From Candidatus Dormiibacterota bacterium (lineage in GTDB: Bacteria > Chloroflexota > Dormibacteria > Aeolococcales > Bog-877), in contig JBAQYY010000042.1 in NCBI GenBank assembly GCA_049790415.1, positions 5,094-69,093 on the forward strand: a stretch of DNA of 64,000 nucleotides, given 5' to 3'. This document shows positions 9,715-33,328 of this stretch, piece by piece. Every line of letters starts with the position of its first letter. The stretch's first letter is position 1. Below the pieces are notes generated by a model. The model worked only from the letters and a program-made list of their open reading frames with translations. It was not told the DNA's origin and searched no databases. A program made the translations under genes and the position numbers.

Positions 9715-14168
<4,454 letters not shown>

Positions 14169-15476: not shown

Positions 15477-16051
15477 GTCCGCTCTTCCTCCGAGGGACGC
15501 AGGAGGACAGCGTCGCCTTCATCGCACTCGGCCAGCCGCACCAGGACTCGCTCGTCCTCGGCAGTGGGCTGGTTCCGGCCCACATAGGTAGCCCGCAAGG
15601 GGAGCTCCCGGTGGCCCCGATCCACCACCACCAAGAGCTCGACGGCTCGGGGCCGGGCGATGTCAGCCAGGGCGGCCAGGGCGGCACGTCCGGTCCGGCC
15701 GTGGAAGAGGACATCGTCGACCAGCACCACTACCCGGTCACTGACCGCATCGACAGTTGCCGGAGGCAGGGGGTACTGGGTCGTATCCGCCGTCTTGACC
15801 CGCGGTTGATCGTCGCGGTAGGCGCCGACGTCGAGGGTGACGCCGCGCCACTTACCGCCACCCTGCTCTCCAATCAGATTGATGAGACGAGCGGCTAAGA
15901 AAGCGCCCCTGGTGACGATGCCACAGAGCACCGCTTCGCCATCGGGGTGGTGCTCGCGGAGCTCGCAAGCCAAGCGCCAGAGGGTTCGCTGCAAGTCCTC
16001 GGGGCCGAGCAGGACCGGCATCCCCGGCGTCGTCATTTGGCTGGTACTCAT
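15473..16051 (-). CDS. pyrR: Bifunctional pyr operon regulator / uracil phosphoribosyltransferase PyrR
   Basis: 192 aa with the PRPP-binding motif VVVLVDDVLFHGRTGRAAL and the PyrR N-terminal pattern (LL.PEDLQRTLWRLA.EL.E). Confidence 0.85.
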   Translation of the reverse strand: MSTSQMTTPGMPVLLGPEDLQRTLWRLACELREHHPDGEAVLCGIVTRGAFLAARLINLIGEQGGGKWRGVTLDVGAYRDDQPRVKTADTTQYPLPPATVDAVSDRVVVLVDDVLFHGRTGRAALAALADIARPRAVELLVVVDRGHRELPLRATYVGRNQPTAEDERVLVRLAECDEGDAVLLRPSEEERT

Positions 16052-17093: not shown

Positions 17094-17460
17094 AAGGTCG
17101 CGTCGCAACCATCATATCGCGGCTTGGCGGGGCAGGGCGCTTCTTCACGACGGAATCGATCCGACACCTCATCCAGGGTGGACAGGTCGCCAGGAACTTT
17201 CACCGTGGAAGCCCACGGCATGTCGAAACGGCGGCCACTCCCGCGAGGCATTTGCGGCTTCGCGTAAAACGTTGCCGATGTAGCAGAGCCTCGTAGATTC
17301 GAAGCGCCCCGGATGCAATCCGCGGGCGTCCTTTGTGAGGGGCCGCAAGTACTTGCCGCAGCCGACTGGCGCGTACCAAAGGCTGCCTGCTTGCCACCAG
17401 GGCGCGGACGCGATCAGAAGACCAGTTGCGCGATTCCAAGGTCAGTGGGATGCTGACGCC

Positions 17461-18474
17461 ATGGAAGTCCGGGATGTCCGAGTTCACGGCGAGCGGGTAA
17501 TCCAGGAGGTAGAGCGAGCAGTTGTCGGCAAGCGTGCCGTTCTGGAGTTGATCCTCAGCGGCATCCTGGCTGATGGGCACGTCCTCTTGGAGGACTATCC
17601 CGGTTTGGCGAAGACCCTCATCGCCCGCTCATTCGCGCAGTCGATGAAGCTCGTCTTTGCCCGGGTTCAGTTCACTCCCGACCTGATGCCCTCCGACATC
17701 ACCGGCTCTTCTATATACAACCAACGGACCAGTGAATTCCAGATGCGGCGGGGACCAATCTTTACCAATCTCCTTTTGGGCGATGAGATCAATCGCTCCC
17801 CTCCGAAAACGCAAGCCGCCTTGCTCGAGGGGATGCAGGAGCGGCAGGTCACAATCGAAGGCCACACCATGGCCTTGCCTCGGCCATTCTTGGTCATGGC
17901 TACGCAGAACCCGATCGAGTACGAAGGCACCTACCCCCTTCCAGAAGCCCAGCTGGATCGTTTTCTGCTGCGTGCCAGCGTCGGGTATCCCGATCCAGCC
18001 GACGAGGAGCGCATGGTGCGCGAGCGCCACCTCCGTCAGCACGACGAGGTGCGGCTCACCCCCGTTCTCGACGGGCCCACCCTGCTCGACTGCCAAGCGG
18101 CCGTAGAGGGAGTACTGGTCACCGACGACCTCTTCCACTACATCGTTCAGCTCGTGGGCGCGACACGGCAGAGCTCACGCGTCTTGGTCGGGGCCAGCCC
18201 GCGGGGGAGCTTGGCGCTGCTGCGTCTTTCCCGTGCTCGCGCCGCTCTGATGGGCCGTGACTTCGTCGTTCCGGACGACGTTCAGGCGGTGGCCGTACCA
18301 GCACTGGCTCACCGACTCACTCTTCGCCCCGAGCTGTGGGCGCAGCGCATCCGAGCTGACGACGTCGTCCTGGAGTGCCTCAAGACCGTTCCTGTGCCAC
18401 CCACCCTGCCCCCAGAGATGATGAGGTCGCTGGCAACAGCAGCCGAGGGCGGAGAGTCCCCGAGGCAGGAATGA
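17461..18474 (+). CDS. MoxR-family AAA+ ATPase
   Basis: GHVLLEDYPGLAKT (Walker A variant), FTNLLLGDEINR (Walker B) and VMATQNPIEYEGTYPLPEAQLDRF (sensor/Arg finger) are the MoxR signature. The start is trimmed to ATG 17461. Confidence 0.85.
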   Translation: MEVRDVRVHGERVIQEVERAVVGKRAVLELILSGILADGHVLLEDYPGLAKTLIARSFAQSMKLVFARVQFTPDLMPSDITGSSIYNQRTSEFQMRRGPIFTNLLLGDEINRSPPKTQAALLEGMQERQVTIEGHTMALPRPFLVMATQNPIEYEGTYPLPEAQLDRFLLRASVGYPDPADEERMVRERHLRQHDEVRLTPVLDGPTLLDCQAAVEGVLVTDDLFHYIVQLVGATRQSSRVLVGASPRGSLALLRLSRARAALMGRDFVVPDDVQAVAVPALAHRLTLRPELWAQRIRADDVVLECLKTVPVPPTLPPEMMRSLATAAEGGESPRQE

Positions 18475-19835
18475 GCCCGACCGCCTCGTCAGGACGAGGC
18501 CAATCTTCCAGCAGTGACCCTTCGCAGATGTCTCGGCAAGTACCAGATGGCCTCATGGCCTTGGTCAGCGAGCCCACCGCTCAATTGGGCGGCTTGCTAT
18601 TCCTGGCCGCCTCGGGTTGCCTAACCGCCTTGGCTCTTGGGCTCCCTGCCTTGGCAGCGGTGGTGGCGCCGATGGGGCTGTGGCTGCTCTGGGGACTGAT
18701 GGCAGCGGGCCACCCGAGCTGCCAAGTAAGCCTGGTTCTGGACCGCGATCGTGCGGTGGAAGGAGAAGTCGTGGAGCTCACGGTGGTTGTCGAAGGCGCG
18801 AGCTCGTTCCAGCGCGTGCTCTGCAGCGTATCCCTACCACCGGGCCTCACTGCCGATCCACCTCCTTCTCGTCTGGCGATGGCGCCGAACCGGAGTGGGA
18901 CAGCTTCCTCCACCCTCTCAATCCGCTGCGGCCGATGGGGGGTCCACCGGATCGATCCCTGCTTGGTGGTCGCTCGCAATGCATTCGCCATCTCTCAAGC
19001 GCGGGGAAGGAGCCTCAACTCGGTCGAAGTAAATGTCTATCCAGCCACGCCACGCCTTAGTGGCGGCGTAAGGCCTTGGGCAACCCAAGTCTATGTGGGC
19101 GAAGAAAGGGCTCGAGAGCGAGGCCAGGGGTTTGAATTCGCCGACATACGCCAGTACCAGCCCGGGGACCAGACGCGGCGCATCAATTGGACTGTGACAG
19201 CGCGGAGGTCTGAGCCGTACGTCAACTTGCAGCACCCAGAGCGCAATGTGGACATCGTCCTCCTTGTCGACGCCTTCACCGACCTGCAGCTGGGAAGCAA
19301 CAGCACGCTGGCATGGGCTGGGAGGGCTGCAGCGGCACTGGCTGAGCTTCATCTCGCCCGCCGAGATCGGATCGGTCTGCTCTCATATGGTGGAGTACTG
19401 CGGTCGCTGCCACCGGGCTCAGGAAGCACTCATCTCTATCGGTTCCTGGACTCTCTGATCGAGACCGAGGTGGTATCGAGCTTCGAGCGTCCTACTCTGA
19501 ATCGGCTACCACCGCGGTCATTGCCGCCCCAAGCCCTGGTAATCGCCTTCACGCCTCTAGTGGATCCGCGGATGATCAAGGTGCTTCTGGAGCTGCATGG
19601 CCGGGGATGCGATCTGGCCGTAATCGAGATCGACCCGGAGCGATTTACCTCTTGGGGTACGGGCACCGGCGAAGATGCCAGCCGACGGATTTGGCGGCTG
19701 GTCCGTTCAGCCGCGCGCCGCGACATTTGGCGCTCTGGCGTGCCACTGGTTCGCTGGGACACCTCCGACCCGCTCGATGCCGCGCTTGTTCAAATCAATC
19801 AAATGAGGCATGGACAATGGCGCGTCCGGGCTTGA
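18471..19835 (+). CDS. DUF58 domain protein (MoxR partner, degenerate vWA-like)
   Basis: ATG 18471 forms an ATGA overlap with the moxR stop. Two N-terminal TM helices are followed by the DUF58 core GQGFEFADIRQYQPGDQTRRINWTVTARR...VDIVLLVD. Confidence 0.75.
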   Translation: MSPTASSGRGQSSSSDPSQMSRQVPDGLMALVSEPTAQLGGLLFLAASGCLTALALGLPALAAVVAPMGLWLLWGLMAAGHPSCQVSLVLDRDRAVEGEVVELTVVVEGASSFQRVLCSVSLPPGLTADPPPSRLAMAPNRSGTASSTLSIRCGRWGVHRIDPCLVVARNAFAISQARGRSLNSVEVNVYPATPRLSGGVRPWATQVYVGEERARERGQGFEFADIRQYQPGDQTRRINWTVTARRSEPYVNLQHPERNVDIVLLVDAFTDLQLGSNSTLAWAGRAAAALAELHLARRDRIGLLSYGGVLRSLPPGSGSTHLYRFLDSLIETEVVSSFERPTLNRLPPRSLPPQALVIAFTPLVDPRMIKVLLELHGRGCDLAVIEIDPERFTSWGTGTGEDASRRIWRLVRSAARRDIWRSGVPLVRWDTSDPLDAALVQINQMRHGQWRVRA

Positions 19836-20935
19836 TCCCGCAACTGACCGTCGGCGTACTGGCCGTGGCCGTCACCGGTCTCATCGCTGTGCAGATCCTC
19901 AACCTCGGTCCGCTCCTTCCCCAGCTTGCTCTGGTCGGAGGACTGGGCGCCATCGTCGCCGTATTGTTGGCCGTCGGACTGAGGAGACCGCGACTGGTTA
20001 CCGCGGCCGGGGCAGGACTCCTGATGGCGTATGCGCTCACTCTCGTGGACAGGTCGGACTCTTCAGTCGCGGCCACCTCGGCCCCCGTCATTGCCGGAGG
20101 CATCGTCCTCAGCATTCAGCTGGCCTGGTGGGCTACAGAGCTGCGTACAACAGCTCGAGAATCCGCGCTGGACCTAGCCCGTCGGGGAGCACAGCTCGGG
20201 GCCAGCGCAGTCGTCGCGGGACTCATCGCTGAAGTGATCTGGCAGGCCAGCCGGATTCACTTAGGTCAAGGGCTGTCATTTTTGGTCTTCGGTCTGCTGG
20301 CCGCGATAGGACTTGCCGCTCTGTTTCTGGCTGTCTCCTCTCTACGGCGAACACCGAGGCGGGAGCCCCTCATTGCCCGATCAACTATGCAGCCGCGTGC
20401 GATATACCTCCCATCCCACTCCCTATCCCCCCACAAGGGACTGAGCACGCTCATTGTTCCAGCCGATGCTCCGACATCGAGACGCAGGCGCAACGGAGTC
20501 GGGTTACGGTCGATGATTGCGGGGGTTCTGCTCCTGGCGGATGCCGCAGTCATCGCGATAGCCCTTTATTTTTCGGGTATCTCGAAAGGGCCGAATGCCG
20601 CGCCTGCCATCACGCTTGGCCTCACAGTAGCCGGCGCAATAGTCATGGGCTGGCTCGGATTGAGTGTGGAAGCACTCGTACGACCTGTTACCACGTTCGA
20701 GGAACTCTCACCCGCGAATACCCCGCCGCCACCCACTGGCCTGGGGAGCCTCGGGGTGATCAGGTCGATGACTCGGCGCGCTTGGAAAACGGGACGGTGC
20801 GACGCCGAATTCGGCACTTACCTTGCTTCGCTTGATAGCCGCCTGGCTGAGGCACGCAGTCCGGATAAAGCCCCAAAATCATTAGCGGAGGTCGGGGCTC
20901 TGCTCGCAGACTTGGAGCGCGGGACTGATGCCTAA
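19817..20935 (+). CDS. Polytopic membrane protein, function unknown
   Basis: From ATG 19817 (MARPGLIPQLTVGVLAVAVTG...) I count about 8 hydrophobic helices by eye, then a soluble C-terminal tail. The gene overlaps its neighbours on both sides (19 nt and 8 nt), which implies translational coupling within the MoxR operon. Confidence 0.5.
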   Translation: MARPGLIPQLTVGVLAVAVTGLIAVQILNLGPLLPQLALVGGLGAIVAVLLAVGLRRPRLVTAAGAGLLMAYALTLVDRSDSSVAATSAPVIAGGIVLSIQLAWWATELRTTARESALDLARRGAQLGASAVVAGLIAEVIWQASRIHLGQGLSFLVFGLLAAIGLAALFLAVSSLRRTPRREPLIARSTMQPRAIYLPSHSLSPHKGLSTLIVPADAPTSRRRRNGVGLRSMIAGVLLLADAAVIAIALYFSGISKGPNAAPAITLGLTVAGAIVMGWLGLSVEALVRPVTTFEELSPANTPPPPTGLGSLGVIRSMTRRAWKTGRCDAEFGTYLASLDSRLAEARSPDKAPKSLAEVGALLADLERGTDA

Positions 20936-21614
20936 TACACGCCGGTGGACAGTGCGATCGATATTCTCGTTCATCGTGCTGAGCCTGGTTGCGGCTTTTC
21001 TAATTGCCCTTGTCGTGACGATGAGCACCTCGCGGATCGGGGCAATCAGGTTGCCTGAAAGCGGCCTCGGCCGCGCGGCCGTCGCCGGCGGGTACACCGC
21101 GGGTTTGGACCCGAGAACCACGGACTGCCATAGCGTAGGGGTACGATGCCGGCGTGAGGCTGGCGCCGCCGCCCGGCGGCCAGGTACTCCGGTACCATCG
21201 TGGGAGCTCGCGCTTGCCGGCTTGCTAGCTGGTGGCGCGGCCGGCTTCCTCTGGAGGACACGCCGCACACAGCTGAGTGACCCCAGCCAAGTCAGTTCCA
21301 GTCTTGAATCATCGCCCAGGACTCGGCGAACGCCGGGCAACCCGAGGGAGAGGGTGCTGGCGGCCTTCGCCGATGTCGAGGAACGACTTACGCGCGGGGG
21401 GATCACCCGAGAGAAGTGGGAGGCGCCGGAAAGCTACTTGGCGCGGGCGGTACCAGATAACACGCGCGGCGGATCCCCAGTCGGCAAATTGGCCCGACTT
21501 TATGCCTTGGCGCGTTATTCTCGTCATCAGATCGACAGCTCCGCGGCCGCACAGGCCGAGGGGGCAGCAGCGGAGTTGGGCGACCGCTTCGATCCCCCCT
21601 CGGTGGCTCCTTAG
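20928..21614 (+). CDS. DUF4129-like membrane-anchored protein, paralog A
   Basis: N-terminal TM (IFSFIVLSLVAAFLIALVV), a second TM (WELALAGLLAGGAAGFLW), then the DUF4129-type C-terminal region RERVLAAFADVEERL...WEAPESYLARA...LARLYALARYSRHQID. Confidence 0.6.
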   Translation: MPNTRRWTVRSIFSFIVLSLVAAFLIALVVTMSTSRIGAIRLPESGLGRAAVAGGYTAGLDPRTTDCHSVGVRCRREAGAAARRPGTPVPSWELALAGLLAGGAAGFLWRTRRTQLSDPSQVSSSLESSPRTRRTPGNPRERVLAAFADVEERLTRGGITREKWEAPESYLARAVPDNTRGGSPVGKLARLYALARYSRHQIDSSAAAQAEGAAAELGDRFDPPSVAP

Positions 21615-21692
21615 GGTGCGCCCATTTAATGAGGCCGAGGAATCCCAGCATCGACTTCGTGCCTCTGCAGGGGGCCGTTGAGCGTATCCAGG

Positions 21693-22364
21693 ATGAGTAG
21701 TCCTCGCACGCATCTCGGGCGGTCGACGTCATGGCTCATCCTGCTAAGTCTGGTCGCGACTTCTCTAATCGCCCTTGTTGCGATCATGAGTACTTCCCGA
21801 GTCGGGACGATCAAGTTGCCCGAGCATAGACATACCGTCGTCCACATCCGAAAGGGGTTCCCAGGCGACGGCCACCTACCTTGTGACGCGGCCGGTGCCC
21901 AATGCCGTCGCGCTGTCAGTCCCTCCCGGGGCAGGAGCGCTCCGGTGCCGTCGTGGGAACTTGCGCTCGCTGGCTTGCTTACTGCAGGCGCAGTCGGCGT
22001 CCTCTGGAAGACGCGCCGCACGCAGCGGAGTGACGCCCGCCAAGCTGGTTCCAGTCTTGAGTCATCGCCCCAGGCTCGCAGAATGCCGACTAACCCCAGG
22101 GAGATCGTGCTGGCGGCCTTCGCAGATGTCGAGGAAAGCCTCACGAGCCGCGGGATTGCTAGGGAGACGTGGGAGGCGCCGGAAGGCTACCTGAGTAGAG
22201 CCATACCGGACAGCCGACACTCCAGTCGCGCTGGTCCTACGCTTGCGCGCCTGTACGCGCTGGCGCGCTACTCACATCACTCCATCGACACGGCGGCGGC
22301 GACCCAAGCTCTCGCTGCATCGATTGAGTTGTCCTCTAGAGTGGGCACGGACTCTGGACCGTGA
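21693..22364 (+). CDS. DUF4129-like membrane-anchored protein, paralog B
   Basis: Collinear with paralog A when started at ATG 21693 (MSSPRTHLGRSTSWLILLSLVATSLIALV...; WELALAGLLTAGAVGVLW; REIVLAAFADVEESL...WEAPEGYLSRA...LARLYALARYSHHSID). Confidence 0.6.
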   Translation: MSSPRTHLGRSTSWLILLSLVATSLIALVAIMSTSRVGTIKLPEHRHTVVHIRKGFPGDGHLPCDAAGAQCRRAVSPSRGRSAPVPSWELALAGLLTAGAVGVLWKTRRTQRSDARQAGSSLESSPQARRMPTNPREIVLAAFADVEESLTSRGIARETWEAPEGYLSRAIPDSRHSSRAGPTLARLYALARYSHHSIDTAAATQALAASIELSSRVGTDSGP

Positions 22365-24116: not shown

Positions 24117-25376
24117 TCACGAAACGTTTGTTTCCCAGCCAGGCTCCTCAAGCTGGGATCGGATGTCGACGACAGCAGCTCCGAGATGGGGCAGCAGGGT
24201 CCCATCTGGAGCGCAACAGGTCCCCTCGAAGAGGAGGCGGGCCAATTCCCTCCCCGGTCGGGACTCTGACTGGACCACTAGACCAGCCTCGCCTGGGAAG
24301 GGGCCGCTCAGACCCATCTTCCCAGTCGGGCGAAAATGCCCGTCCGGAGTCAGAGTCCCCCGTGCCGACGCCAGAGCTGGGTGCGAGCGCCTTCTGCCCC
24401 GTTGATAGAGGATGAGCTGCGACCAGCGGCACTCCAAGGTTTGGCTGCTGAGCTCGCCAATCCCAAAGCTGGCCAGGTGCTGGTCTAGAAGTCCCGGGCT
24501 CCCGCCGTCACGGGCGGTGAGACTGAAGAGGGGCAGAGAAGCCACCGGCCGGGGGTTGATCTCGATGCACCAGATCGTCCCCTCGGCGCCCACCACTAAA
24601 TCCAAGCCAAAGACGCCCCGGTGGCCCACACCCTGGAGCCAGTGCCCAGCCTGGCGGGCCAGTGCCTGCACAGCGGATGCTTGCGGCACGGGCTGGCCGT
24701 AGTCGTTGCCGCAGGAGCCCAGTGAATGCGGGGTCAGACTCTCGATCCCGGTCAATTGCAGGCTCGCCGGGCCGAACAACAGATTGCCCTCGGTGACAAC
24801 CCCGGTCACGGTGACCGGAACTCCCAAGACGCGCTCGGCGATCCGGCAGGTTCGCCCCGCAAACCGCTGGAGAAGATGGGCGAGTTGATCGGGGGTCTCC
24901 GCCAGATAGGTGTGTTCGCCGGAGAAACCTCGAGCCAGTTGGAAGATCACCGGCAGCCTGAGCTCGCCAGCAGCGGTCAGGAGGTCGGCGCCGGCGACCC
25001 CTGCCCGGGTGGGAGGGATGGGCAGCCCCGCCGCCGGGGCACTGCGACTGAAGTAGCTCTTGTTCTCAATCCGACGGGCGATCAAGGCGGGCGAGTTGGC
25101 CACGATGACACCGACTTCTTGGGCCAGTCGCTCCACTTGAGCCGAGTTCTTCCAGACCACGATGGCGTCCGACCGCTCGCGCAGATCAACCTGAACTGAG
25201 GCATCAGCGAGGAGCGCAGCCGTTGAGGCGGGGGCTGGTACTTGAAACCGGGCCCAGCCAGGCCCCTCTTCTCGGGCCAGCCCGCAATCCTCGGCACAGA
25301 TGGCCTTGAGCCCAGCTGCCAGCACCGGAAGCGGGTCGGGACCGACAAAGGTCACTCCGATCTTGCCGGCCTTCAT
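24117..25376 (-). CDS. ATP-grasp family carboxylate-amine ligase
   Basis: 419 aa. It has a pre-ATP-grasp region, a central IENKSYF...LPVIFQLARGFSGEHTY nucleotide-binding segment and the C-terminal Mg/ATP motif GVFGLDLVVGAEGTIWCIEINPRP. The start forms an ATGA overlap with the PLP-enzyme stop. Confidence 0.7.
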   Translation of the reverse strand: MKAGKIGVTFVGPDPLPVLAAGLKAICAEDCGLAREEGPGWARFQVPAPASTAALLADASVQVDLRERSDAIVVWKNSAQVERLAQEVGVIVANSPALIARRIENKSYFSRSAPAAGLPIPPTRAGVAGADLLTAAGELRLPVIFQLARGFSGEHTYLAETPDQLAHLLQRFAGRTCRIAERVLGVPVTVTGVVTEGNLLFGPASLQLTGIESLTPHSLGSCGNDYGQPVPQASAVQALARQAGHWLQGVGHRGVFGLDLVVGAEGTIWCIEINPRPVASLPLFSLTARDGGSPGLLDQHLASFGIGELSSQTLECRWSQLILYQRGRRRSHPALASARGTLTPDGHFRPTGKMGLSGPFPGEAGLVVQSESRPGRELARLLFEGTCCAPDGTLLPHLGAAVVDIRSQLEEPGWETNVS

Positions 25377-26461
25377 GACGGTCCGGTTTTGCTGAAGCCG
25401 GCCCCTGCCAGGAGTCCATCAAGCTCCTCTTCGGTATTGGCCATCGGGAGTGGAGGATCGCCGGGGTGTTGCCTGGGTTCCTGATCGAGCTGCGACTCGT
25501 CTCCAGTCAGCACCGCGATCCAGCGCCCCTCCGCCACCTGGGTGTCGGCGGCCACCGCTTGCCGCATCGCCGCCAGGGCGGCCAGCCCTTCCCAGGACGT
25601 CCGGACGCCGTGGCGGGCGGCTATCTCTCGAACCTCTTCGGCCTCTTCGGCGCTCACTCGCCAGCCCCGCCCGCCGCTGCGGCGAACCTCCCGTCGGACT
25701 GCGGGCGCCCGCCGCGAGCGGTGGGTGCCGAGCTCCCCTAAGAGCGACTGCTCCCCAGGTTGCGGGGGACTCGAGGGATACCAGGGGCGGGTCAGCTCTC
25801 CACCCGGGGAGCCCTCCACCACGTGCAGCGCCGGGCGCTGCTCCGGGGGCAGCAGCTGCTCCATCCCCTCAGCGATACCCAAGGCACTGGCTCCGCTGCT
25901 GGAGAAAACAAAGACTGCCGCCAGCGGCTCCTGCTCGACCAGCTCAGCCGCTATCCCCCGGTAAGCGTTGGGGGCGAGCAGGTTGGCGGAGCCGCGGAGG
26001 TCGGAGAGGCCCCAGTCGCGGACGCCATGGTGCAGCAGAGCGACCGGACTGTCGCTGAGGACGGTCAGTTGCTGATAGATCTCAAGCCGCTGCAGCTTGA
26101 GCCGAGGCGTCCGTGGTGAGACCAGGCTCAACACCCGGAGGCCACCCAAGGAGGCGTACGCCGCCGCCGCGATGGCGGCGTTGCCTGAAGAGGAGATGAC
26201 CGCCTGACGGCCACCCGAAGCGAGCAGGACTGAGCAGAGCAAGCTCAGAGAACGCGCCTTGTGCGACCCGGTCGGAGAGAGGTCCTCGCGCTTGAGCATC
26301 AGGTTGGGAATCCCGAGCGAGGACCCCAGTTCTCCGGCCGCCTCCAGCGGCGTCATCCCCTCTCCGAGTGAGAGCTGAGATGCCGCCGGTAGACTGACGC
26401 CGAAGAGCCGGGCGTGGATCCACTGTCCCTGGGGGCCGTCATTCCCCTCAGCGCCGGGCAT
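25373..26461 (-). CDS. Fold-type-II PLP-dependent enzyme (PALP family: threonine synthase / cysteine synthase-like)
   Basis: From ATG 26461: LGEGMTPLE...LKREDLSPTGSHKARS (Schiff-base Lys), SSSGNAAIAAAAYA and the SSSGASALG phosphate loop. The 64-codon 5' extension in the ORF track is antisense to the LysW-like ORF and is rejected. Confidence 0.7.
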   Translation of the reverse strand: MPGAEGNDGPQGQWIHARLFGVSLPAASQLSLGEGMTPLEAAGELGSSLGIPNLMLKREDLSPTGSHKARSLSLLCSVLLASGGRQAVISSSGNAAIAAAAYASLGGLRVLSLVSPRTPRLKLQRLEIYQQLTVLSDSPVALLHHGVRDWGLSDLRGSANLLAPNAYRGIAAELVEQEPLAAVFVFSSSGASALGIAEGMEQLLPPEQRPALHVVEGSPGGELTRPWYPSSPPQPGEQSLLGELGTHRSRRAPAVRREVRRSGGRGWRVSAEEAEEVREIAARHGVRTSWEGLAALAAMRQAVAADTQVAEGRWIAVLTGDESQLDQEPRQHPGDPPLPMANTEEELDGLLAGAGFSKTGPS

Positions 26462-26476
26462 TAATGGAGGTCTCCA

Positions 26477-26650
26477 GTGAGCACGATCGGCGCCGTCGCC
26501 AAGAACTGTCCTGACTGCGGCACCGTTCTCGACCTCGCCGACGTGGCGGAGATTGGCGACCTCGTCGACTGCCCCAATTGCGGAGCCACCTTCGAACTGG
26601 TGGGACTCAACCCCCTCACTCTGGCTCCCTTCGAGGATGAGGAGAAGTAG
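26477..26650 (+). CDS. LysW/ArgW-like zinc-ribbon small protein (candidate amino-group carrier protein), 57 aa
   Basis: Absent from the supplied ORF track, which lists nothing shorter than 60 aa. GGAGG lies 6 nt upstream of GTG 26477. Translation: VSTIGAVAKNCPDCGTVLDLADVAEIGDLVDCPNCGATFELVGLNPLTLAPFEDEEK. It has two CxxC knuckles, a GDLVxCxxCGAxxELVGLxPLxL core and an acidic tail, as in the LysW family. Confidence 0.6.
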   Translation: MSTIGAVAKNCPDCGTVLDLADVAEIGDLVDCPNCGATFELVGLNPLTLAPFEDEEK

Positions 26651-28169
26651 CATCCCTTACCGCCCGCCGGAAACCACCCTGGCGGTAGTGGGCGCTGAAG
26701 AAGCCCGGGCAGGCGGGAGAGAGGAGGACCGTGTCTCCCGGCTGAGCCAGCTCGGTTGCCAGGCCGACCGCCTCTTGGAGCGTCCCGACCCGGCTCACTA
26801 GCTCCTCCCGGCCCGTCCTGCTGACCTCCTCAGCCAGTCGATCCGACCCCTTCCCGGGCAGCAGCAGCACCCGCTTGACGAGTCCGCCGACCATTGCTGA
26901 CAGCTCGCCGAAGTCGATGCCCTTGTCCTCTCCGCCAGCGATCAGGATGCAAGGTCGGTTCAGCCCGAGGATGGCCGCCACGGTCGACTGAGGTGTGGTG
27001 CTGGAGAGGTCATCGACGTAGTCGATCCCCCCGTGTTGACGCACCAGCTCGGTGCGATGGCGAAGCGGCCGAAAATTCTCGATCGCCTGGGCCGCCTGGG
27101 CCAGCTGGTCCGGCTCCGGAGGAGCCAGGACGGCCAGCACCGTGAGGGCGGCCCGGACATTGCTCAAGTTGTGCCGACCCAACAAGGGGACACTCGCTGT
27201 GGCCATGACTGGACGGGAGGTTCCTTGCCAGCGCAGTCGGAGCAGGCCGTCCTCCTCATAGGCACCATCCAGACCCGAAAGCTGCTCCTGGCCATGGGCG
27301 AAACGGAGCTGGCGAATCTCTGTCCGGAGATCGCCGCCGGCCAGACTTTGAGCATCGTCGCCGTTGCGGATCGCCACCTCGCAGCCAGGGAGTTCAAAGA
27401 TTCGCCGCTTGGCGGCAACGTATCCGGCCAGGCCCTGGTGCTCGTCGAGGTGATTGGGCGTGATGTTGGTCAAGCAGGCGACCCGGGGGGCACGCTCCAG
27501 CTGGAGTAGCTGGCGGTTGCTTATCTCCAGGATCAGGCAGCCTGTGCCATCGTCGGCGGCCACCTCCAGCAGAGCCTGGCGGTCGTGCCGGTCGTTGCCG
27601 GCCAGCCAGACGGTGGGGTAGAGACCGCTCTGAGGCACCAGCGCCGCTACCAGTGAACTGGTGGTCGACTTGCCGTGGGTTCCGGTGATGCCCACCACCT
27701 CGCCCCGGGCGAGGTCGAGGTAGGCCTGGATCAGTGAATAAAACGGATGACCCTTCTCCTTCAGCTTCTGCAGGGGAGCGTTGGCCGCCGCCAGGAACCA
27801 GGCCTGGGTGGGGATGATCAGGCTCGACTTCTCTATCTCCTTGAGGTATTCGCCCGCCAGATGCAGCGAGCGCAGCCCGGTGAGCAACTCCTCCAGACGC
27901 TGCTGGCGCGCCTTTGGGTCCATCCCGGCGTGGGCCAGGTGGTGGGAGCGGCGCAGGCTCTCCAGGTCCGGCTGCTGGTCGTGGCCGACCAGATTGGTGA
28001 AGCCCGCGGCCAGGAGATAGCGGGCCATCTCACCGCCCTCGACGCTAGCCACCCCCACCAGATCGATCTGGCTCTGGCGAAGTTCGGCCAGCCGGGCGGG
28101 CACCCGAAGTTCGGCGTGACCAGACGGCCAAGGGGAAGTAGCCGCCGCGGCAGGGGCCGGGAACTCCAT
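26616..28169 (-). CDS. MurD-like Mur-ligase family protein (paralog outside the dcw cluster)
   Basis: From ATG 28169: N-terminal Rossmann-like domain, then GITGTHGKSTTSSL (P-loop), LEISNRQL, NITPNHLDEH, LLGRHNLSNVRAAL, RHRTELV...IDYVDDLSSTTP, IAGGEDKGIDF and LLSPACPGF. These are collinear with the MurD motifs. An insertion of about 100 aa precedes the P-loop. Confidence 0.8.
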   Translation of the reverse strand: MEFPAPAAAATSPWPSGHAELRVPARLAELRQSQIDLVGVASVEGGEMARYLLAAGFTNLVGHDQQPDLESLRRSHHLAHAGMDPKARQQRLEELLTGLRSLHLAGEYLKEIEKSSLIIPTQAWFLAAANAPLQKLKEKGHPFYSLIQAYLDLARGEVVGITGTHGKSTTSSLVAALVPQSGLYPTVWLAGNDRHDRQALLEVAADDGTGCLILEISNRQLLQLERAPRVACLTNITPNHLDEHQGLAGYVAAKRRIFELPGCEVAIRNGDDAQSLAGGDLRTEIRQLRFAHGQEQLSGLDGAYEEDGLLRLRWQGTSRPVMATASVPLLGRHNLSNVRAALTVLAVLAPPEPDQLAQAAQAIENFRPLRHRTELVRQHGGIDYVDDLSSTTPQSTVAAILGLNRPCILIAGGEDKGIDFGELSAMVGGLVKRVLLLPGKGSDRLAEEVSRTGREELVSRVGTLQEAVGLATELAQPGDTVLLSPACPGFFSAHYRQGGFRRAVRDATSPHPRREPE

Positions 28170-28179: not shown

Positions 28180-29085
28180 TTAGCGGGCGGGAGCGATTGC
28201 TCCCGGCACCCGCCGAACGGTGAGCACCTGATAGCGCGCGCGGAACTCATTGAGTGGTTCTCGCCGCACCTCATTGCACTCGCTGCAGGCATGAACCACC
28301 TCGTCATCGGCAAGATAGAGAGCGAGGTGGCTGGTCCGTTTCGGACCGCGGTGCACAGCGCAGATCAGATCTACCTCACGCAGCTCGGCGATCCGGACCC
28401 GCTCCCCTATCTTTCGCTGGGCCCGGCTGTTGCGGGGAAGGAGCACCCCGGCCCTGAGGTAGGCGCGCCAGCTAAGACCGGAGCAGTCGATCCCCTGGTC
28501 CCCGGTGCCGCCGAAGACATAGGGGCGTCCCAGCAGGTCGAGGGCGGCCTCTCGCACCACCTGCGGGTCCCAACCGGAAGCGGGCACGGTGGCCGTCCCG
28601 GTCACTCCCTCGGCGCCAGCTGGTCCCCAGCGGTAGGGCGAACCCGGGCGCACCCAGCCGACCGCATCCCCGGGCGCGCGGACCAAGTACTGACCGTCCC
28701 GGACGGCGAGCAGCCCGGCGGCGGGGTCTCCCGGGAGTAGCTGGGTGGTGAGCTCCTGCTTGTCCGAGGCCTGATCTGGACGGCGCCGCCAGATGTCCAG
28801 CGTTCCCCCTTCGGCATGGAGGGCGACGCGGGTGCGGCGGGTGGCCAACACCAAGAGTCGGCAGGTGGCTCCCGGCCAGAGTTCGGCCACCCGTCGGCGC
28901 AACTCCAGCGCCTGGCCTGGCAGCGCCACGGTGCCCCGGATCCCATCAGTCGTCACCTGGACCTCGATCAAAGCCTCGCCATAGCGAGCCATGGCCTCCC
29001 GGCGAAGGCTTGCAATGGAGTCCTCCAGCGCCAGCGCCTCCCGGCCGGAGTTCAACTTTCCGACGACCCGAAGAGTCGCCGCCAC
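28180..29085 (-). CDS. NlpC/P60 (C40) cysteine peptidase with N-terminal SH3b-like region
   Basis: C-terminal catalytic module GRPYVFGGTG..GIDCSGLSWRAY...SHLALYLADDEVVHA (Cys-His-His). This resembles gamma-D-glutamyl-diamino-acid endopeptidases of the YkfC type. The start is uncertain: GTG 29085 overlaps the upstream gene by 34 nt, and ATG 28992 is an alternative. Confidence 0.75.
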   Translation of the reverse strand: MAATLRVVGKLNSGREALALEDSIASLRREAMARYGEALIEVQVTTDGIRGTVALPGQALELRRRVAELWPGATCRLLVLATRRTRVALHAEGGTLDIWRRRPDQASDKQELTTQLLPGDPAAGLLAVRDGQYLVRAPGDAVGWVRPGSPYRWGPAGAEGVTGTATVPASGWDPQVVREAALDLLGRPYVFGGTGDQGIDCSGLSWRAYLRAGVLLPRNSRAQRKIGERVRIAELREVDLICAVHRGPKRTSHLALYLADDEVVHACSECNEVRREPLNEFRARYQVLTVRRVPGAIAPAR

Positions 29086-29930
29086 CCGGTACGGTGCGTC
29101 TCACCCTTGAGCTGACCTGGATGGAGTTGGAGAGACTGACCGTCGGTGCTGAACAGAACCGGGCTCAAAGGGAAGCTCGCCAACCGGTACAGCCGGCGGA
29201 CCACCTCGGTCATCCTGTCGGTGCTGGCAGCGTCGCCAACGCCAGCCACCACCATGGCCCGGTCGGGGGCCGCCAGAATTGCCCGGCCGTTGCCCAACTC
29301 GGCGAGTTTCTCCAAGAAGGCAGGTACCAGGAGCAGGCTGCTGGAAAAGAGGATGTCGTCGGTGAAGAGCCAGGTTCTCTGCTCTGGTTCTTTGTTCAGG
29401 ACGGCGCTCCAGCGGGTCAAGCGGAGGGCGGTGTTGCGATCGGCGAGCTCCATCAACTGCTGCTCGTCGAGCCCGCCGATTTCTGCCTCGGCCCGGGAGA
29501 CTCCCCGCATGGCGTCGTCGGGCAGCGCCTCCGCGACAAACGCCAGCAAACCTCCAGGAACCTCTCGGGTGGCCAGCTCGGCATAGCGACTGAATCGGCG
29601 AATAGTGCGGCCCGCCCGGACGCACCACACCAAGGCGCCCGGATCCGGAGCCGGCATGGAGGGCTCAGGATGGTCCTCTGCAGCGCTCAGGCGGGGTGCG
29701 GCAGCAGTGACGAAATGAGAGATGCGCTCAGGCATAGACGCCTCGGGCTGGCTCGCTTCCGCGAAGAGCGACTCCAGCGAGAGCGATACCTGGGATCGAT
29801 CCTTGCGGGCCAGGACCCCAAAATCGTTGTCGCGGGCGCTGAATTCCCAACCCCGGTAGCGAGCCCGAAACTGGGTTAGGAGTCGCTCCTGGAACAGTTG
29901 GCGCTCGCTGTCCAGACGGATTGTCGGCAT
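29052..29930 (-). CDS. Hypothetical protein, DUF1444 (YtpQ)-like by weak resemblance
   Basis: 292 aa and soluble. The overall layout and a few blocks (ILAAPDRAMVVAG, SPVLFSTDGQSLQL) recall the YtpQ/DUF1444 family. There is no catalytic motif I can name. Confidence 0.35.
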   Translation of the reverse strand: MPTIRLDSERQLFQERLLTQFRARYRGWEFSARDNDFGVLARKDRSQVSLSLESLFAEASQPEASMPERISHFVTAAAPRLSAAEDHPEPSMPAPDPGALVWCVRAGRTIRRFSRYAELATREVPGGLLAFVAEALPDDAMRGVSRAEAEIGGLDEQQLMELADRNTALRLTRWSAVLNKEPEQRTWLFTDDILFSSSLLLVPAFLEKLAELGNGRAILAAPDRAMVVAGVGDAASTDRMTEVVRRLYRLASFPLSPVLFSTDGQSLQLHPGQLKGETHRTGWRRLFGSSES

Positions 29931-29934
29931 CGGT

Positions 29935-31923
29935 CTATTTTGACCGCGAGCGCGAGGCTACGTAGTCGACTAACACGTAGTCGCCGAGCCGGTCGGGGCT
30001 GACGAAGAAGACGCGACCCCGATTCTGGCGAGTGAGTTGCTGGATGAACTGGACCAGGTACTGGTTGGTCTCGAGCATAAAAGTGTTGATCACAATTCCC
30101 TCCCTGGTGCAGTGACGCACCTCCTGAAGGGTCTTGCGAAATGTCTCGGGCAAGGGCGGGTACATGAAGACGGCATGGGTGCCCTCCATGTGGGCCGTGG
30201 GTTCGCCATCGCTGACGATGATTATCTGGCGATTCCCGGCCCGATGTCGGTGCAGCAGTCGGCGCGCCAGCATCAGTCCGTGCTGCATGTTGGTGCCGTA
30301 GACGTACTCACTGTAGGAGAGTTGGGCCAGCATGGCCGGACTGATTTCCCGGGCGTAGTCGGAAAAACCGACGACGTAGAGGGTATCCCGGGGATACTGG
30401 GTACGGATCAAGGAATTCAGCGCCAGAGCCATTTTCTTGGCCGCGTAGAAGTAGCCTCGCAAGGGCATGCTGCGGCTCATGTCGAGCATCAGCACGGTGT
30501 TGGTCTGCACGCTGCGCTCGGATTCCCGCACCTCGAAGTCGTCGACGTTTAGGCGCAGGGGACGGCTTCCATCGCTGTGCCGGACAGCGTTCATAAGGGT
30601 CTTTTCCACGTCGAGGTTGAAGGGATCCCCGAACTGGTAGGGCTTGCTGTCATCACTGACCTCGGGGCCAGTCCCCAGGCTGCCCTGGGGATGACTGCCG
30701 AAGCCATCGGCGGAGAGGTGCTGGAAGATGTCGGCCAGCGCCTTCTGGCCGATCTTGCGCACTCCCTGCGGAGTCAGCTCCAGCCCGTCGCCATCACGCT
30801 TGAGCTGTCCTTTGGCCTCCAGCTCGCTGACCAGGGCCTGGATCTTGAGCATGTTGGCAGCCGAGTCGGGTCCCAGGCTTTCCGCCATCTGCTCCAGCAA
30901 CTCCGGGGGCACATCGGCGCCGGCGTAAGCCTGCCGGATGCCCCTTTCCAACGAGTCGAGCTGTTGCAGTTCGCCCATCACGTCGAGGGCACCCGGCAGA
31001 TCGAGTTCCTCGCCGCCGAAGAAGGGGAAACGCGAACCGGAAGACGCCTGCGGCGACATCTGGCCGAGCAGCCGGGAGAGTTGAGCCAGCTGTTCTTGGA
31101 GTTCCTGATCGCTGAGGGCGGCCCGCATGATCTCCTGCAGTTGCTGACGCGTCTCCGGTGACGCTGATTCCAGCAGCGAGTTGAGTTCGGCCATCTGTTG
31201 GCGCAGCTGGTCGAGGAAGGACTCCAGATCCTCGGGATGGTCGGGGAAGTAGCTGCCCCACTTCTCCATGAACTCCTGGTAGCGAGGAGGTTCGCCCCGC
31301 TGCTGTCGCTCCAGCATCTGGTTGAGGTCGTGGATCATTTCGCGTAGCTGGCCGATGTCCTGCGCACCCAGGTTCTGGACTGCCTTACCGAGGTCCTGGA
31401 AGTGGCGCTCGACGAGGTTCCGACGGAGCTCGCCCAGAAGCTCCTGGAAGTCCTGACCCGCCTCTTGGTCGAGGAACTCGTACTCCTGGAGCTGGCGGAT
31501 CGCGGAACCCGCCTCGGGAGGCAGCGCATCGAGTTGTTCCAGACGGCTCCGGGTCAGTCTCTCCACTAGGCGCTGGTGATCGCTTCCGGCCGCCTCGCGA
31601 GCGCGCTCCTGCAGGGTGGTGCGCTCCTTTTGGAGAATCCGGTCGAGCCGCTCCTCGATGTCCTTGAAGAGGCCATCCAGGTTGTAGCGCTCGAGCTTCT
31701 CCTGGCGCTGTTCGCGGAGTTGGTCGAGGAGGTCCTCCAAGCCTTGGAGCTGGTTGCCCTGGCTGTCCCTGAAGCCCTGGCTCAGGAGCCGGCGGAGGGC
31801 GGACTCAAAGTCCCAGCCGTGGAAGACGTCCTCTGCCAGGCGCGAGAAGAGTTCGCCCGAGTCAGGAAGGTCACCTTCCTGACTGCCGTCCCAACGGCTG
31901 TAGAGTTCGCGGGCCGCGGCCAT
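29935..31923 (-). CDS. Large vWA-domain protein (COG4867-like)
   Basis: 662 aa. A long Glu/Leu/Gln-rich helical N-terminal part is followed by a C-terminal von Willebrand A domain with a MIDAS-like VLMLDMSRSM and later VVGFSDYA...IIIVSDGEPTA. Confidence 0.7.
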   Translation of the reverse strand: MAAARELYSRWDGSQEGDLPDSGELFSRLAEDVFHGWDFESALRRLLSQGFRDSQGNQLQGLEDLLDQLREQRQEKLERYNLDGLFKDIEERLDRILQKERTTLQERAREAAGSDHQRLVERLTRSRLEQLDALPPEAGSAIRQLQEYEFLDQEAGQDFQELLGELRRNLVERHFQDLGKAVQNLGAQDIGQLREMIHDLNQMLERQQRGEPPRYQEFMEKWGSYFPDHPEDLESFLDQLRQQMAELNSLLESASPETRQQLQEIMRAALSDQELQEQLAQLSRLLGQMSPQASSGSRFPFFGGEELDLPGALDVMGELQQLDSLERGIRQAYAGADVPPELLEQMAESLGPDSAANMLKIQALVSELEAKGQLKRDGDGLELTPQGVRKIGQKALADIFQHLSADGFGSHPQGSLGTGPEVSDDSKPYQFGDPFNLDVEKTLMNAVRHSDGSRPLRLNVDDFEVRESERSVQTNTVLMLDMSRSMPLRGYFYAAKKMALALNSLIRTQYPRDTLYVVGFSDYAREISPAMLAQLSYSEYVYGTNMQHGLMLARRLLHRHRAGNRQIIIVSDGEPTAHMEGTHAVFMYPPLPETFRKTLQEVRHCTREGIVINTFMLETNQYLVQFIQQLTRQNRGRVFFVSPDRLGDYVLVDYVASRSRSK

Positions 31924-31933
31924 TGCCGCTTGC

Positions 31934-33328
31934 CTAGCTTCCGTAGACGGTGCTGCCGTCCACCACCGTCTTGTTCAGGCGCTTGGAGAGGTGCAACCCC
32001 TCCAGAACCAGTTCTAACGCCGCTGCCACCGACCCCGGCTGCTGGGGTTCGTCGAGGTCGCTCAGGATCCGCTTCATCTCGGGGATACCATCGGCCACCT
32101 GGAGGTAACGCTCCAGCGCCACCATCTCGCCGACTTCGATGGTGAGCCCTTCCTCGAAGCGGGCCAGCACCGGTGCGAACTCCTGCACCGCGAAGTGGCG
32201 CCGGAAGACATTGGTGCACGCGCTCCGGAGCAGCTTCTGGAGCAGGGCCTGGTCCTCGCCCTCCTCCCAGGTCTCCAATTCCAGCTTGCCCAGCGTTGAA
32301 GCGGTCAGCGCGCCGAGGTCACTCAGCCGCGGCACCGCCTCGGGCTCGGCCAGGCTGATGGCGCGGCGAACCGCGTTGGCGCAGAGGCTTTCGAAATTGG
32401 CGATCGAGAGCCGGACCGAGACTCCCGAGCGCTGGTTGATCTGGGTGGTGCGCCGAGCCAGCTGGGAGATCTCGGCGACCAGCTCCAACATGTATTGGGG
32501 CACGTGGAGGGGAATGCCTAATCCCGAGAACTGGTCGCGCTCCTGCTGGATGATCTCGGCCTCGGCTTCCGGGGAGCGCGGGTAGTGGGTGCGGATCTGG
32601 GCCCCGAAGCGGTCCTTGAGCGGGGTGATGATCCGGCCCCGGTTGGTGTAGTCCTCGGGGTTGGCAGTGGCCACCACCAACACGTCCAGGGGCAGGCGAA
32701 CCTGGAAGCCGCGGATCTGGACGTCGCGCTCTTCCATGATGTTGAGTAGCCCCACCTGGATCCGCTCGGCCAAATCGGGGAGCTCGTTGATGGCAAAGAT
32801 GCCCCGGTTGACCCGAGGCAGCAGGCCGTAGTGGATGGTCAGCTCGTCGGCCAGATAGCGTCCTTCGGCCACCCGAATCGGATCCACCTCGCCGATCAGG
32901 TCGGCAATGGAGGTGTCGGGAGTGGCCAGTTTTTCACCGAACCGCTCCGCCCGCCCGATCCACGTTATCGGCGTTTGGTCACCCATCTCGCCGACCAGAT
33001 CGCGACCGAGGCGGCTGATCGGCGCGTAGGGATGGTCGTGGACCTCACTGCCACGAATCATTGGAACCTGTTCGTCCAGGAGTTGGGCCATGGCCCGGAT
33101 CAGCCGCGACTTGGCCTGGCCCCGTTCGCCGAGGAACACCATGTCCTGCCCCGCCAGCAGGGCATTCTCGATCTGGGGCAGTACCGTGTCCTGGTATCCG
33201 ACCAGGCCCTGGAAGCGCTCCCGGCCATGGCGCAGTGCCTCGATCAGGTTGTCGCGCAGCTCCTCCCGGACCGAGCGCATCCGGTACTCGCTGCCGCGTA
33301 GCTCACCAAGGGTGCTCGGGAGTGCCAT
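31934..33328 (-). CDS. ChlI/MoxR-type AAA+ ATPase (Mg-chelatase subunit I-like)
   Basis: Walker A FLGERGQAKS, Walker B/sensor GIFAINELPDL...LLNIMEERDVQIRG...VLVVATANPEDYTNRGRIITPLKDRF, and a C-terminal helical lid. It lies 10 nt upstream of the vWA gene. Confidence 0.75.
   Translation of the reverse strand: MALPSTLGELRGSEYRMRSVREELRDNLIEALRHGRERFQGLVGYQDTVLPQIENALLAGQDMVFLGERGQAKSRLIRAMAQLLDEQVPMIRGSEVHDHPYAPISRLGRDLVGEMGDQTPITWIGRAERFGEKLATPDTSIADLIGEVDPIRVAEGRYLADELTIHYGLLPRVNRGIFAINELPDLAERIQVGLLNIMEERDVQIRGFQVRLPLDVLVVATANPEDYTNRGRIITPLKDRFGAQIRTHYPRSPEAEAEIIQQERDQFSGLGIPLHVPQYMLELVAEISQLARRTTQINQRSGVSVRLSIANFESLCANAVRRAISLAEPEAVPRLSDLGALTASTLGKLELETWEEGEDQALLQKLLRSACTNVFRRHFAVQEFAPVLARFEEGLTIEVGEMVALERYLQVADGIPEMKRILSDLDEPQQPGSVAAALELVLEGLHLSKRLNKTVVDGSTVYGS

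Follow-up and report, generated by a model that had tools for sequence, protein, structure and literature searches.

A LysW-fold zinc-ribbon protein with an invariant Glu-Glu-Lys terminus, encoded with a conserved four-enzyme set in Candidatus Dormiibacterota and other bacteria

[quoted passage not shown] The ORF is confirmed as a real, conserved gene under purifying selection. Judging from their sequences, its product and the relatives that likewise end in Glu-Glu-Lys (EEK) constitute a separate sister subfamily of LysW that spans several phyla, and the class of the C-terminal tail predicts the genomic context of the gene. Our analysis makes it rather likely that the protein is a carrier, or a covalent substrate, dedicated to a conserved set of four enzymes (a MurD-like ligase, an ATP-grasp ligase, a pyridoxal 5′-phosphate (PLP) enzyme and an NlpC/P60 amidase), and not the LysW of the lysine pathway. 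For brevity, the protein is called the carrier below.

The carrier gene and its position

The features of the gene in the window are as follows.

26477–26650, plus strand: carrier gene (EEK-tail subfamily, LysW-fold zinc ribbon of 57 aa), GTG start, TAG stop at 26648–26650
26466–26470, plus strand: Shine-Dalgarno sequence GGAGG, with the GTG start 6 nt further on
26507–26518, plus strand: zinc knuckle 1, CPDC (C11 and C14), invariant in 27/27 sequences of alignment A1 and in the wider subfamily
26570–26581, plus strand: zinc knuckle 2, CPNC (C32 and C35), invariant in A1 and in the wider subfamily
26630–26647, plus strand: C-terminal tail F-E-D-E-E-K, signature aromatic-x-[D/E]-E-E-K-COOH
26616–26650, both strands: convergent overlap of 35 nt between the 3′ ends of the carrier gene and of the Mur-type ligase gene

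The deduced product is VSTIGAVAKNCPDCGTVLDLADVAEIGDLVDCPNCGATFELVGLNPLTLAPFEDEEK, with 17 residues between C14 and C32. Start, stop, Shine-Dalgarno sequence and knuckle spacing are exactly those read in the original prediction, made from the letters of the window, which placed the ORF in an intergenic gap. It does lie between the genes for the ligase (stop at 26616–26618, minus strand) and for the PLP enzyme (start at 26461, minus strand), but it is not simply intergenic, because it overlaps the 3′ end of the ligase gene. The prediction was silent on this overlap and on the antisense orientation of the ORF, which is on the plus strand while all the neighbouring genes are on the minus strand.

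The length of the ORF is no evidence on its own, because long ORFs are very common in this DNA of 65 % GC (162 ORFs of at least 40 aa within 18 kb). The product, however, matches Pfam family PF21344 (Zn_ribbon_LysW) along residues 10–51 with 47 bits (cut-off 27, E=2e-12), and a profile built from A1, the alignment of the carrier and its relatives, matches the crystallised LysW proteins of Thermus (3wwl, E=6e-12) and Thermococcus (E=3e-11). An AlphaFold2 (AF2) model of the carrier, with a mean confidence score (pLDDT) of 78.6, has only LysW structures as its top five neighbours in PDB (3wwl, 3wwn_B, 5eio_C, 5k2m), at TM-scores of 0.64–0.79, root mean square deviations of 1.6–2.9 Å and 39–49 % identity, the next match having E>1. 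Across 38 distinct orthologous nucleotide sequences the carrier frame contains no stops, the entropy of the third codon position is 0.94 versus 0.30–0.34 at positions 1 and 2, and the ratio of nonsynonymous to synonymous variation (pN/pS) is 0.27, versus 1.6–1.8 in four other frames. All the relatives keep the ORF intact and in synteny, the conservation on which the prediction had proposed that it be judged, and most orthologous loci have a GGAGG-like sequence at the same spot.

A chance antisense ORF in high-GC DNA, conserved only on account of a minus-strand regulatory element or of an N-terminal extension of the PLP gene, might be suspected here, given that long ORFs are frequent on both strands, that the carrier ORF sits within a run of minus-strand genes, and that the antisense frame sharing its wobble positions is open in all orthologues, with a pN/pS of 0.40. 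Nevertheless, pN/pS is lowest in the plus frame, which also shows a clear third-position signal, the matches to the LysW profile and fold are confined to this frame, an Rfam search of the carrier site gave no family match, and in other phyla the same protein is encoded by the ordinary first gene of a one-strand operon. With almost no probability left to it, this explanation is already effectively refuted.

The 35-nt overlap is identical across all the loci of the Dormibacterota type that we read, and the end of the ligase, ...TSP[H/R]PR..., is the antisense reading of the codons for F-E-D-E-E-K in the carrier. At the other end of the gene, the divergent starts of the PLP enzyme (ATG, minus strand, 26461) and of the carrier (GTG, 26477) are 15 nt apart, with the GGAGG in between, so that the carrier mRNA would overlap the PLP/ATP-grasp transcription unit in antisense, a possible regulatory arrangement. 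Scans for sigma-70 promoters and intrinsic terminators in 26000–27000 found no sites, and are uninformative for this phylum.

The prediction also supposed that annotation pipelines could miss so short an ORF. On the contrary, gene callers pick it up on every contig read, a public contig has a called gene for the identical protein, and a protein 98 % identical is encoded in DATLRN010000010.1 (Dormibacterota). Both NCBI and JGI label the carrier and its relatives as "lysine biosynthesis protein LysW", a name that is probably wrong for a carrier with an EEK tail.

A tail class distinct from canonical LysW

The description of the ORF as LysW/ArgW-like in the original prediction holds at the level of the family, by sequence and by fold, including the significant match to PF21344 that it had suggested looking for, but not at the level of the equivalog. 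The carrier scores 46.1 against NCBIfam TIGR01206 (LysW equivalog, cut-off 53.2) and 36.5 against NF041070 (archaeal LysW-ArgW, cut-off 75); a relative from the second gene architecture described below, type B, is also under both cut-offs (46.2 and 51.1, respectively). Since both cut-offs are missed, the carrier is not a LysW equivalog.

The main difference lies in the C-terminal tail, where D54, E55, E56 and K57 are invariant in the 27 Dormibacterota sequences of A1. Among the small LysW-ribbon proteins retrieved in a widened search, two classes were compared.

Canonical class (n=40): tail L-A-P-E-E-E-E-D-W-G-E; EDWGE in 40/40; 26 residues after the fourth Cys in 40/40
EEK class (n=111): tail P-x-x-L-x-x-[F/Y]-x-[D/E]-E-E-K; E-E-K in 111/111; 22 residues after the fourth Cys in 103/111

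The EEK tail is therefore four residues shorter than the canonical one, and the departure from EDWGE noticed in the prediction extends to all 111 proteins. In LysW, the substrate is attached to the gamma-carboxylate of the C-terminal Glu (PMC9303977, PMC12998189), which is E53 in the Thermococcus protein (PMC12998189), and pathway intermediates are AmCP-gamma-linked (PMC11726168). The carrier ends in Lys and lacks the terminal Glu with this attachment site; from the invariance of the EEK terminus, any tethering chemistry would have to differ from that of LysW, as had been predicted.

Proteins of the EEK type make up about 24 of the best 150 representatives found among 1.84 billion proteins clustered at 50 % identity, and their named hosts are metagenome-assembled genomes (MAGs) of Dormibacterota, Myxococcota and Candidatus Firestonebacteria. 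The tail is just as invariant in type-B operons, where no gene overlaps that of the carrier, so the overlap in Dormibacterota does not account for the conservation of the tail. Depletion of internal lysines, considered as a sign of a reactive terminal Lys, was discarded because EEK and canonical proteins are both poor in Lys and Arg and the signal is unspecific.

The LysW-ribbon superfamily (proteins P0214–P0342) includes further acidic-tail classes, such as ...EEEDEDV, ...DDDWDD and ...EEEEAWE, as well as several multi-ribbon proteins of 100–600 aa. Tandem two-ribbon LysW-like proteins occur in MAGs of Limnocylindria, Rokubacteria and Binatia (L046, 10007–10753; L047, 3666–4007; L048, 172–711; L049, 2879–3607), and carry the motif ...FEYGA[F/Y]AAE... 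at the C-terminus or close to it; the protein of L046 runs on into a hydrophobic C-terminal region. The out-of-phylum matches from the genome scan (L045–L049) were rejected as orthologues of the carrier, being two-ribbon proteins or domains of larger proteins.

Conserved linkage to four enzymes

From low to high coordinates, the genes around the carrier in the window code for DnaJ, the ATP-grasp ligase, the PLP enzyme, the carrier itself, the Mur-type ligase, the NlpC/P60 amidase, a 292-aa protein, a von Willebrand factor type A (VWA) protein and a MoxR ATPase; the four enzymes predicted to be the neighbours were all confirmed by Pfam. In Dormibacterota the order ATP-grasp (minus), PLP enzyme (minus), carrier (plus), ligase (minus) and NlpC/P60 (minus), as well as the 35-nt overlap, is unchanged even where carrier identity between contigs falls to 63 %. 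Through distant relatives of the ATP-grasp ligase (32–38 % identity) we reached contigs in which these five genes are arranged co-directionally as one operon, here type B (for example L053, 8001–12814), in the order carrier, NlpC/P60, ligase, PLP enzyme and ATP-grasp, with gaps of 0–4 nt or overlaps of 4 nt and in genomes of 30–73 % GC. The enzyme order NlpC/P60, ligase, PLP, ATP-grasp is common to both architectures, and only the carrier gene has moved and been inverted. In Dormibacterota an inversion would have placed it amid the enzyme genes, and its mRNA would necessarily be antisense to the transcription unit of the enzymes.

In a census of all the fetched loci, 61 EEK loci were non-redundant; 51 of these have the Dormibacterota arrangement and 10 that of the co-directional operon. 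Each enzyme was scored only in those loci whose contig extends far enough to test for it.

Mur-type ligase: 56/56 testable loci
PLP enzyme (PALP): 53/53 testable loci
ATP-grasp ligase: 49/49 testable loci
NlpC/P60 amidase: 54/56 testable loci

Genes of the LysX/Y/Z/J/K type were looked for in the 64-kb window (Pfam, NCBIfam) and in the fetched EEK loci (tblastn). As predicted, there are none in the window by Pfam or tblastn, and tblastn searches for the enzymes of canonical alpha-aminoadipate operons found none in any EEK locus, the only positive being a control locus. This control, a canonical EDWGE LysW retrieved in the same search, sits in a complete alpha-aminoadipate operon, with genes for homocitrate synthase, homoaconitase, homoisocitrate dehydrogenase, LysX (matching the RimK and LysX_preATP_grasp domains), LysY, LysZ, LysJ and an M20 peptidase.

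Directly upstream of the type-B carrier, four loci contain a gene of glycoside hydrolase family 3 (L051, 3373–4467; L052, 3168–4331; L053, 6826–7935; L056, 2908–4005), and the L053 product passes the NCBIfam model for NagZ, a beta-N-acetylhexosaminidase (260 bits, cut-off 207). This hints at a link with peptidoglycan recycling in that lineage, to which the nagZ neighbour is confined, as it does not occur in Dormibacterota or Firestonebacteria loci. The six cluster proteins gave no match to the PADLOC defence models. Plasmid collections, searched with a type-B carrier and ATP-grasp ligase, likewise held no match, and thus yielded no annotated host in culture.

Three contigs with a typical Dormibacterota module are titled Candidatus Acidiferrales (L015), Micrarchaeaceae archaeon (L016) and Nanopelagicaceae (L031). 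Given their identical gene order and 70–81 % carrier identity, these titles are probably taxonomic mislabels of MAGs.

The partner enzymes

The four enzyme genes of the window are all on the minus strand.

26616–28169, minus strand: MurD-like ligase, about 517 aa (Pfam Mur_ligase_M and Mur_ligase_C)
28180–29085, minus strand: cytoplasmic NlpC/P60 cysteine amidase (Pfam NLPC_P60, 3e-18), exact start uncertain
25373–26461, minus strand: fold-type-II PLP enzyme, threonine-synthase-like, 362 aa (Pfam PALP, 1.9e-37)
24117–25376, minus strand: ATP-grasp ligase of a distinct family, 419 aa (Pfam ATP-grasp_3, 24.6 bits, cut-off 23.2)

The start of the ligase (ATG, 28169) was chosen from orthologues of 495–517 aa, the maximal ORF extending to 28313. 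Its match to TIGR01087 (murD) scores 207.9, just short of the cut-off of 211.95, and covers only model positions 75–422; alignments with MurD proteins in PDB reach E=1e-33 and begin at about residue 103, and the N-terminal domain, which binds UDP in MurD, was left unaligned by HMMER. When aligned to E. coli MurD, the ligase retains the P-loop, the Glu and His that bind Mg and the Lys that is carbamylated in MurD, together with the HN..N, HR and DD motifs and the equivalents of Thr321 and Lys348. Other residues that contact D-Glu are altered, with Ser at the equivalent of Lys319 and Gly and Phe at those of Ser415 and Leu416. A MAFFT alignment that included the N-terminus of E. coli MurD indicated a family-specific insertion of ca. 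45 aa in the N-terminal domain and altered loop motifs that are kept in both architectures. From these motifs the Mur-type ligase appears to be catalytically competent.

The NlpC/P60 protein has a family-specific, conserved N-terminal domain of ca. 180 aa, and its nearest relatives in PDB include gamma-D-Glu-L-diamino-acid endopeptidases. The Cys/His/His residues are kept in both architectures and no signal peptide was found in any lineage examined, so the enzyme appears, from its sequence, to be both competent and cytoplasmic. The PLP enzyme reaches no NCBIfam cut-off, and aligns with the threonine synthase 2zsj in PDB (4e-11), including the PLP-binding Lys.

The ATP-grasp ligase is 100 % identical to a Dormibacterota protein at NCBI. 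ATP-grasp_3 is the only Pfam family whose cut-off it passes, and its match to the rimK family is weak (E=1.5e-4, 21 bits, cut-off 143). The nearest folds to its AF2 model (pLDDT 93) are PurK, PurD and biotin carboxylase, with TM-scores of ca. 0.6 and 12–17 % identity; the enzyme is therefore not of the LysX/RimK type. The fold search returned generic three-domain ATP-grasp enzymes only, and was discarded as a guide to the substrate. Distant relatives were also discarded as a route to function, since a homologue from Lentzea that adjoins a decarboxylase gene, with no carrier, was uninformative.

Comparison with known carrier systems

In fold and size the carrier resembles the LysW/ArgW AmCPs of Thermus, Sulfolobus, Thermococcus and Streptomyces (Vzb22), which are four-Cys zinc ribbons of ca. 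50–57 aa. It shares with them a strongly acidic character (pI ca. 4) and a flexible C-terminal tail, likewise acidic, which has a set length and ends in an invariant motif; in both cases genes for an ATP-dependent amide ligase and for an amide hydrolase lie alongside. Unlike them, it ends in aromatic-x-[D/E]-E-E-K, with a terminal Lys, instead of E-D-W-G-E, and is encoded with a MurD-like ligase, a non-RimK ATP-grasp ligase, a fold-type-II PLP enzyme and an NlpC/P60 amidase in place of LysX, the kinase LysZ, the reductase LysY, the fold-type-I aminotransferase LysJ and the M20 enzyme LysK. The AmCP pathways described lead to lysine, ornithine/arginine, diaminodihydroxyheptanoic acid (DADH) for vazabitide, ficellomycin and azinomycin, and a further case is a Serratia cluster on the same LysX/Z/Y/J framework (PMC11726168, PMC9303977).

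Amide-tethered carriers are also represented by pearlins, as in the biosynthesis of 3-thiaglutamate and ammosamide, where amino acids are added to the C-terminal alpha-carboxylate of a ribosomal carrier peptide, modified and released by a protease (PMC9303977). If the Mur-type ligase activates the terminal carboxylate, the EEK system may be similar to these in its amide tether, removal by a peptidase and regeneration of the carrier (PMC9303977). In contrast to a pearlin, which has no fixed structure and is recognised by the sequence at its C-terminus, the EEK carrier is a folded zinc ribbon, and the ligases of its module are of the Mur and ATP-grasp types; no PEARL enzyme (LanB-like, tRNA-dependent) was found among the neighbours in any context read.

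The enzymes themselves recall those of peptidoglycan stem peptides. The ligase is closest to MurD (ca. 208 bits with TIGR01087), with intact catalytic motifs, the amidase to murein gamma-glutamyl endopeptidases such as YkfC, and the combination of a Mur ligase and an ATP-grasp enzyme resembles that of MurF and Ddl. However, the ligase falls just under the MurD cut-off, with an unalignable UDP domain, the ca. 45-aa insertion and a D-Glu pocket that is partly different, the amidase is cytoplasmic and has a novel N-terminal domain, and a protein carrier is without counterpart in murein synthesis. Some ATP-grasp enzymes, such as RimK, acting on ribosomal protein S6, and tubulin tyrosine ligase, extend the acidic C-termini of proteins. 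The pairing of an ATP-grasp ligase with a protein having a C-terminal run of Glu is similar to that of RimK and S6; by fold search, though, the ATP-grasp ligase of the module is not of the RimK type, the presumed substrate ends in Lys and there are three more obligatory partners. Our literature searches found no description of the EEK subfamily, the gene set or the module, and nothing stating which lysine pathway Dormibacterota use.

A putative carrier pathway and its alternatives

Precedents for amide-tethered carrier pathways are those of AmCPs and pearlins (PMC9303977, PMC11726168). By analogy with the binding of LysW to LysX, LysZ and LysY, the ribbon of the carrier would dock on the enzymes and present the tail to their active sites, and one or both of the ATP-dependent ligases would join an amino-acid building block to the tail through an amide bond. 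In the most parsimonious mapping, the carrier would be to the Mur-type ligase what UDP-N-acetylmuramoyl (UDP-MurNAc)-L-Ala is to MurD: the diverged N-terminal domain of the ligase would bind the ribbon instead of UDP, the enzyme would phosphorylate a carboxylate of the tail, either the alpha-carboxylate of Lys57 or the side chain of a Glu, and domain 3 would supply the incoming amino acid, to be added to the tail. Alternatively, the epsilon-amine of the Lys might accept an activated carboxylate, in which case the polarity of the tether would be the reverse of that in LysW. The part of the PLP enzyme would be to make or remodel this amino-acid unit, and the NlpC/P60 amidase, with relatives that cleave gamma-glutamyl-diamino-acid amide bonds, is a candidate to hydrolyse the link, freeing the product and regenerating the carrier, the role that LysK has for LysW. 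In its complete form, the proposal is of a third amide-tethered carrier pathway beside AmCPs and pearlins, with a LysW-fold protein replacing UDP-MurNAc as the handle for a MurD-derived ligase; a product resembling peptidoglycan stems (glutamyl or diamino-acid), or otherwise non-proteinogenic, would be built on or through the C-terminal Glu-Glu-Lys by both ligases, remodelled by the PLP enzyme and released by NlpC/P60, and the polarity or position of the tether (alpha-carboxylate or epsilon-amine of Lys) would be unlike that of every known carrier. We put this forward tentatively, as a possibility that falls somewhat short of being probable.

Several points weigh against a dedicated carrier. 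The mechanism is drawn from genomic context and homology; the terminal residue is Lys and not Glu, so the chemistry of LysW is not simply transferable, and the ATP-grasp ligase is not LysX-like, with carboxylases among its closest folds. The substrates of some, or even all, of the enzymes may be free metabolites and not a tethered tail, and the nagZ-adjacent lineage would also fit the recycling of murein peptides with a non-covalent small protein. Finally, two Dormibacterota loci lack an adjacent NlpC/P60 gene: in one species (L004/L029) a transposase-like ORF (12637–13479, ...SFNSKARDELF...) is at the usual place, and the other is L039.

The alternative that the databases imply, an ordinary LysW/ArgW of lysine (or ornithine) biosynthesis through alpha-aminoadipate, with LysX/Y/Z/J/K encoded elsewhere in the genome, agrees with the NCBI and JGI names, with the passing of the Pfam LysW cut-off and with the strong similarity, in sequence and fold, to crystallised LysW. 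It conflicts with the failure to reach either NCBIfam cut-off (46.1 < 53.2 and 36.5 < 75), the loss of the C-terminal attachment Glu (PMC9303977, PMC12998189), a tail four residues shorter with another invariant motif, and an obligatory linkage to four unrelated enzymes in named MAGs of three phyla; moreover, no enzyme of the alpha-aminoadipate pathway is present in the window or in the 61 loci, whereas the canonical form sits in a full operon for that pathway. We consider it very improbable. A non-covalent role also seems unlikely, but less so: the zinc ribbon could be a subunit, adaptor or regulator, for instance the scaffold or inhibitor of a cytoplasmic set for the recycling or remodelling of murein peptides, in which the EEK tail would mimic a substrate or serve as a docking peptide. 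Of the four enzyme families, three make or cut bonds of peptidoglycan stem peptides, a genuine NagZ is encoded directly upstream in the type-B lineage, and LysW relies on its globular domain and acidic surface to bind its enzymes (PMC9303977). Yet the last three residues are invariant and at a fixed length across phyla, as would be expected of a reactive terminus (compare EDWGE in LysW), the link to nagZ is limited to one lineage and does not include Dormibacterota or Firestonebacteria, and the remodelled UDP-binding domain of the ligase speaks against ordinary UDP-MurNAc-peptide substrates.

The combination in one operon of a small ribosomal peptide, an ATP-grasp ligase and a peptidase is also reminiscent of RiPPs, peptides that are synthesised by the ribosome and modified after translation. 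The carrier would then be a precursor whose tail Glu and Lys are cross-linked by the ATP-grasp ligase, as in the lactams of graspetides, or to which residues are appended, and NlpC/P60 would free the modified peptide; the tail offers both a Lys amine and Glu carboxylates, and pipelines for RiPP mining do pick up LysW-like genes (PMC7794033). Such a precursor, however, would have a conserved, folded LysW zinc ribbon as its leader and a core that is invariant across phyla, unlike typical RiPP cores, and the conserved set contains no transporter or immunity gene. The nearest folds of the ATP-grasp ligase are generic (PurK, PurD, biotin carboxylase), graspetide ligases not having been compared directly, and graspetide systems do not include a Mur ligase or a PLP enzyme. 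A RiPP-like precursor is accordingly improbable in our judgement.

Other genes in the window

Directly upstream of the module, on the same strand, are three genes that are conserved beside it in Dormibacterota and absent from it in other phyla; the precomputed Pfam matches of the VWA orthologues are of the Rv0959/Mb0984 type. A pyrimidine biosynthesis operon is syntenic with the EEK module in many Dormibacterota contigs. These and the remaining gene groups noted are listed here.

29052–33328, minus strand: the 292-aa protein (no family match), the VWA protein and the MoxR-type AAA ATPase
7868–17055, minus strand: pyrimidine operon, with genes for aspartate transcarbamoylase, a PyrR-like phosphoribosyltransferase, dihydroorotase, a fused carbamoyl-phosphate synthase of 1485 aa, and the electron-transfer and catalytic subunits of dihydroorotate dehydrogenase
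17335–22364, plus strand: second MoxR system, with an AAA_3 ATPase (17335–18474), a DUF58 protein (18375–19835), a protein of 442 aa that has hydrophobic stretches and matches no family, and tandem DUF4129 paralogues (20928–21614 and 21678–22364) that are 56 % identical
41952–47490 and 53359–54231, minus strand: protocatechuate/beta-ketoadipate gene set, with alpha- and beta-like dioxygenase subunits, a cycloisomerase-like enzyme (Lyase_1), a fusion of a hydrolase with a CMD domain, and CoA-transferase A and B, near an IclR regulator and an ABC uptake system

Significance

What we infer to be new here is a carrier of the LysW family whose tether differs and whose enzyme partners are wholly different, misnamed in public databases. 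If this is true, many public entries under "lysine biosynthesis protein LysW" would be misnamed, and the alpha-aminoadipate route would have been wrongly credited to these organisms in reconstructions that rely on that name. The carrier-protein principle would be extended to a Mur ligase, a new ATP-grasp family, a fold-type-II PLP enzyme and an NlpC/P60 amidase, with a new tether on a terminal Lys and a paralogue of MurD that has gained a protein substrate. The module is small, soluble and of five genes, and it would indicate a new metabolite or protein modification that has been conserved from soil Dormibacterota to marine Myxococcota-like bacteria.

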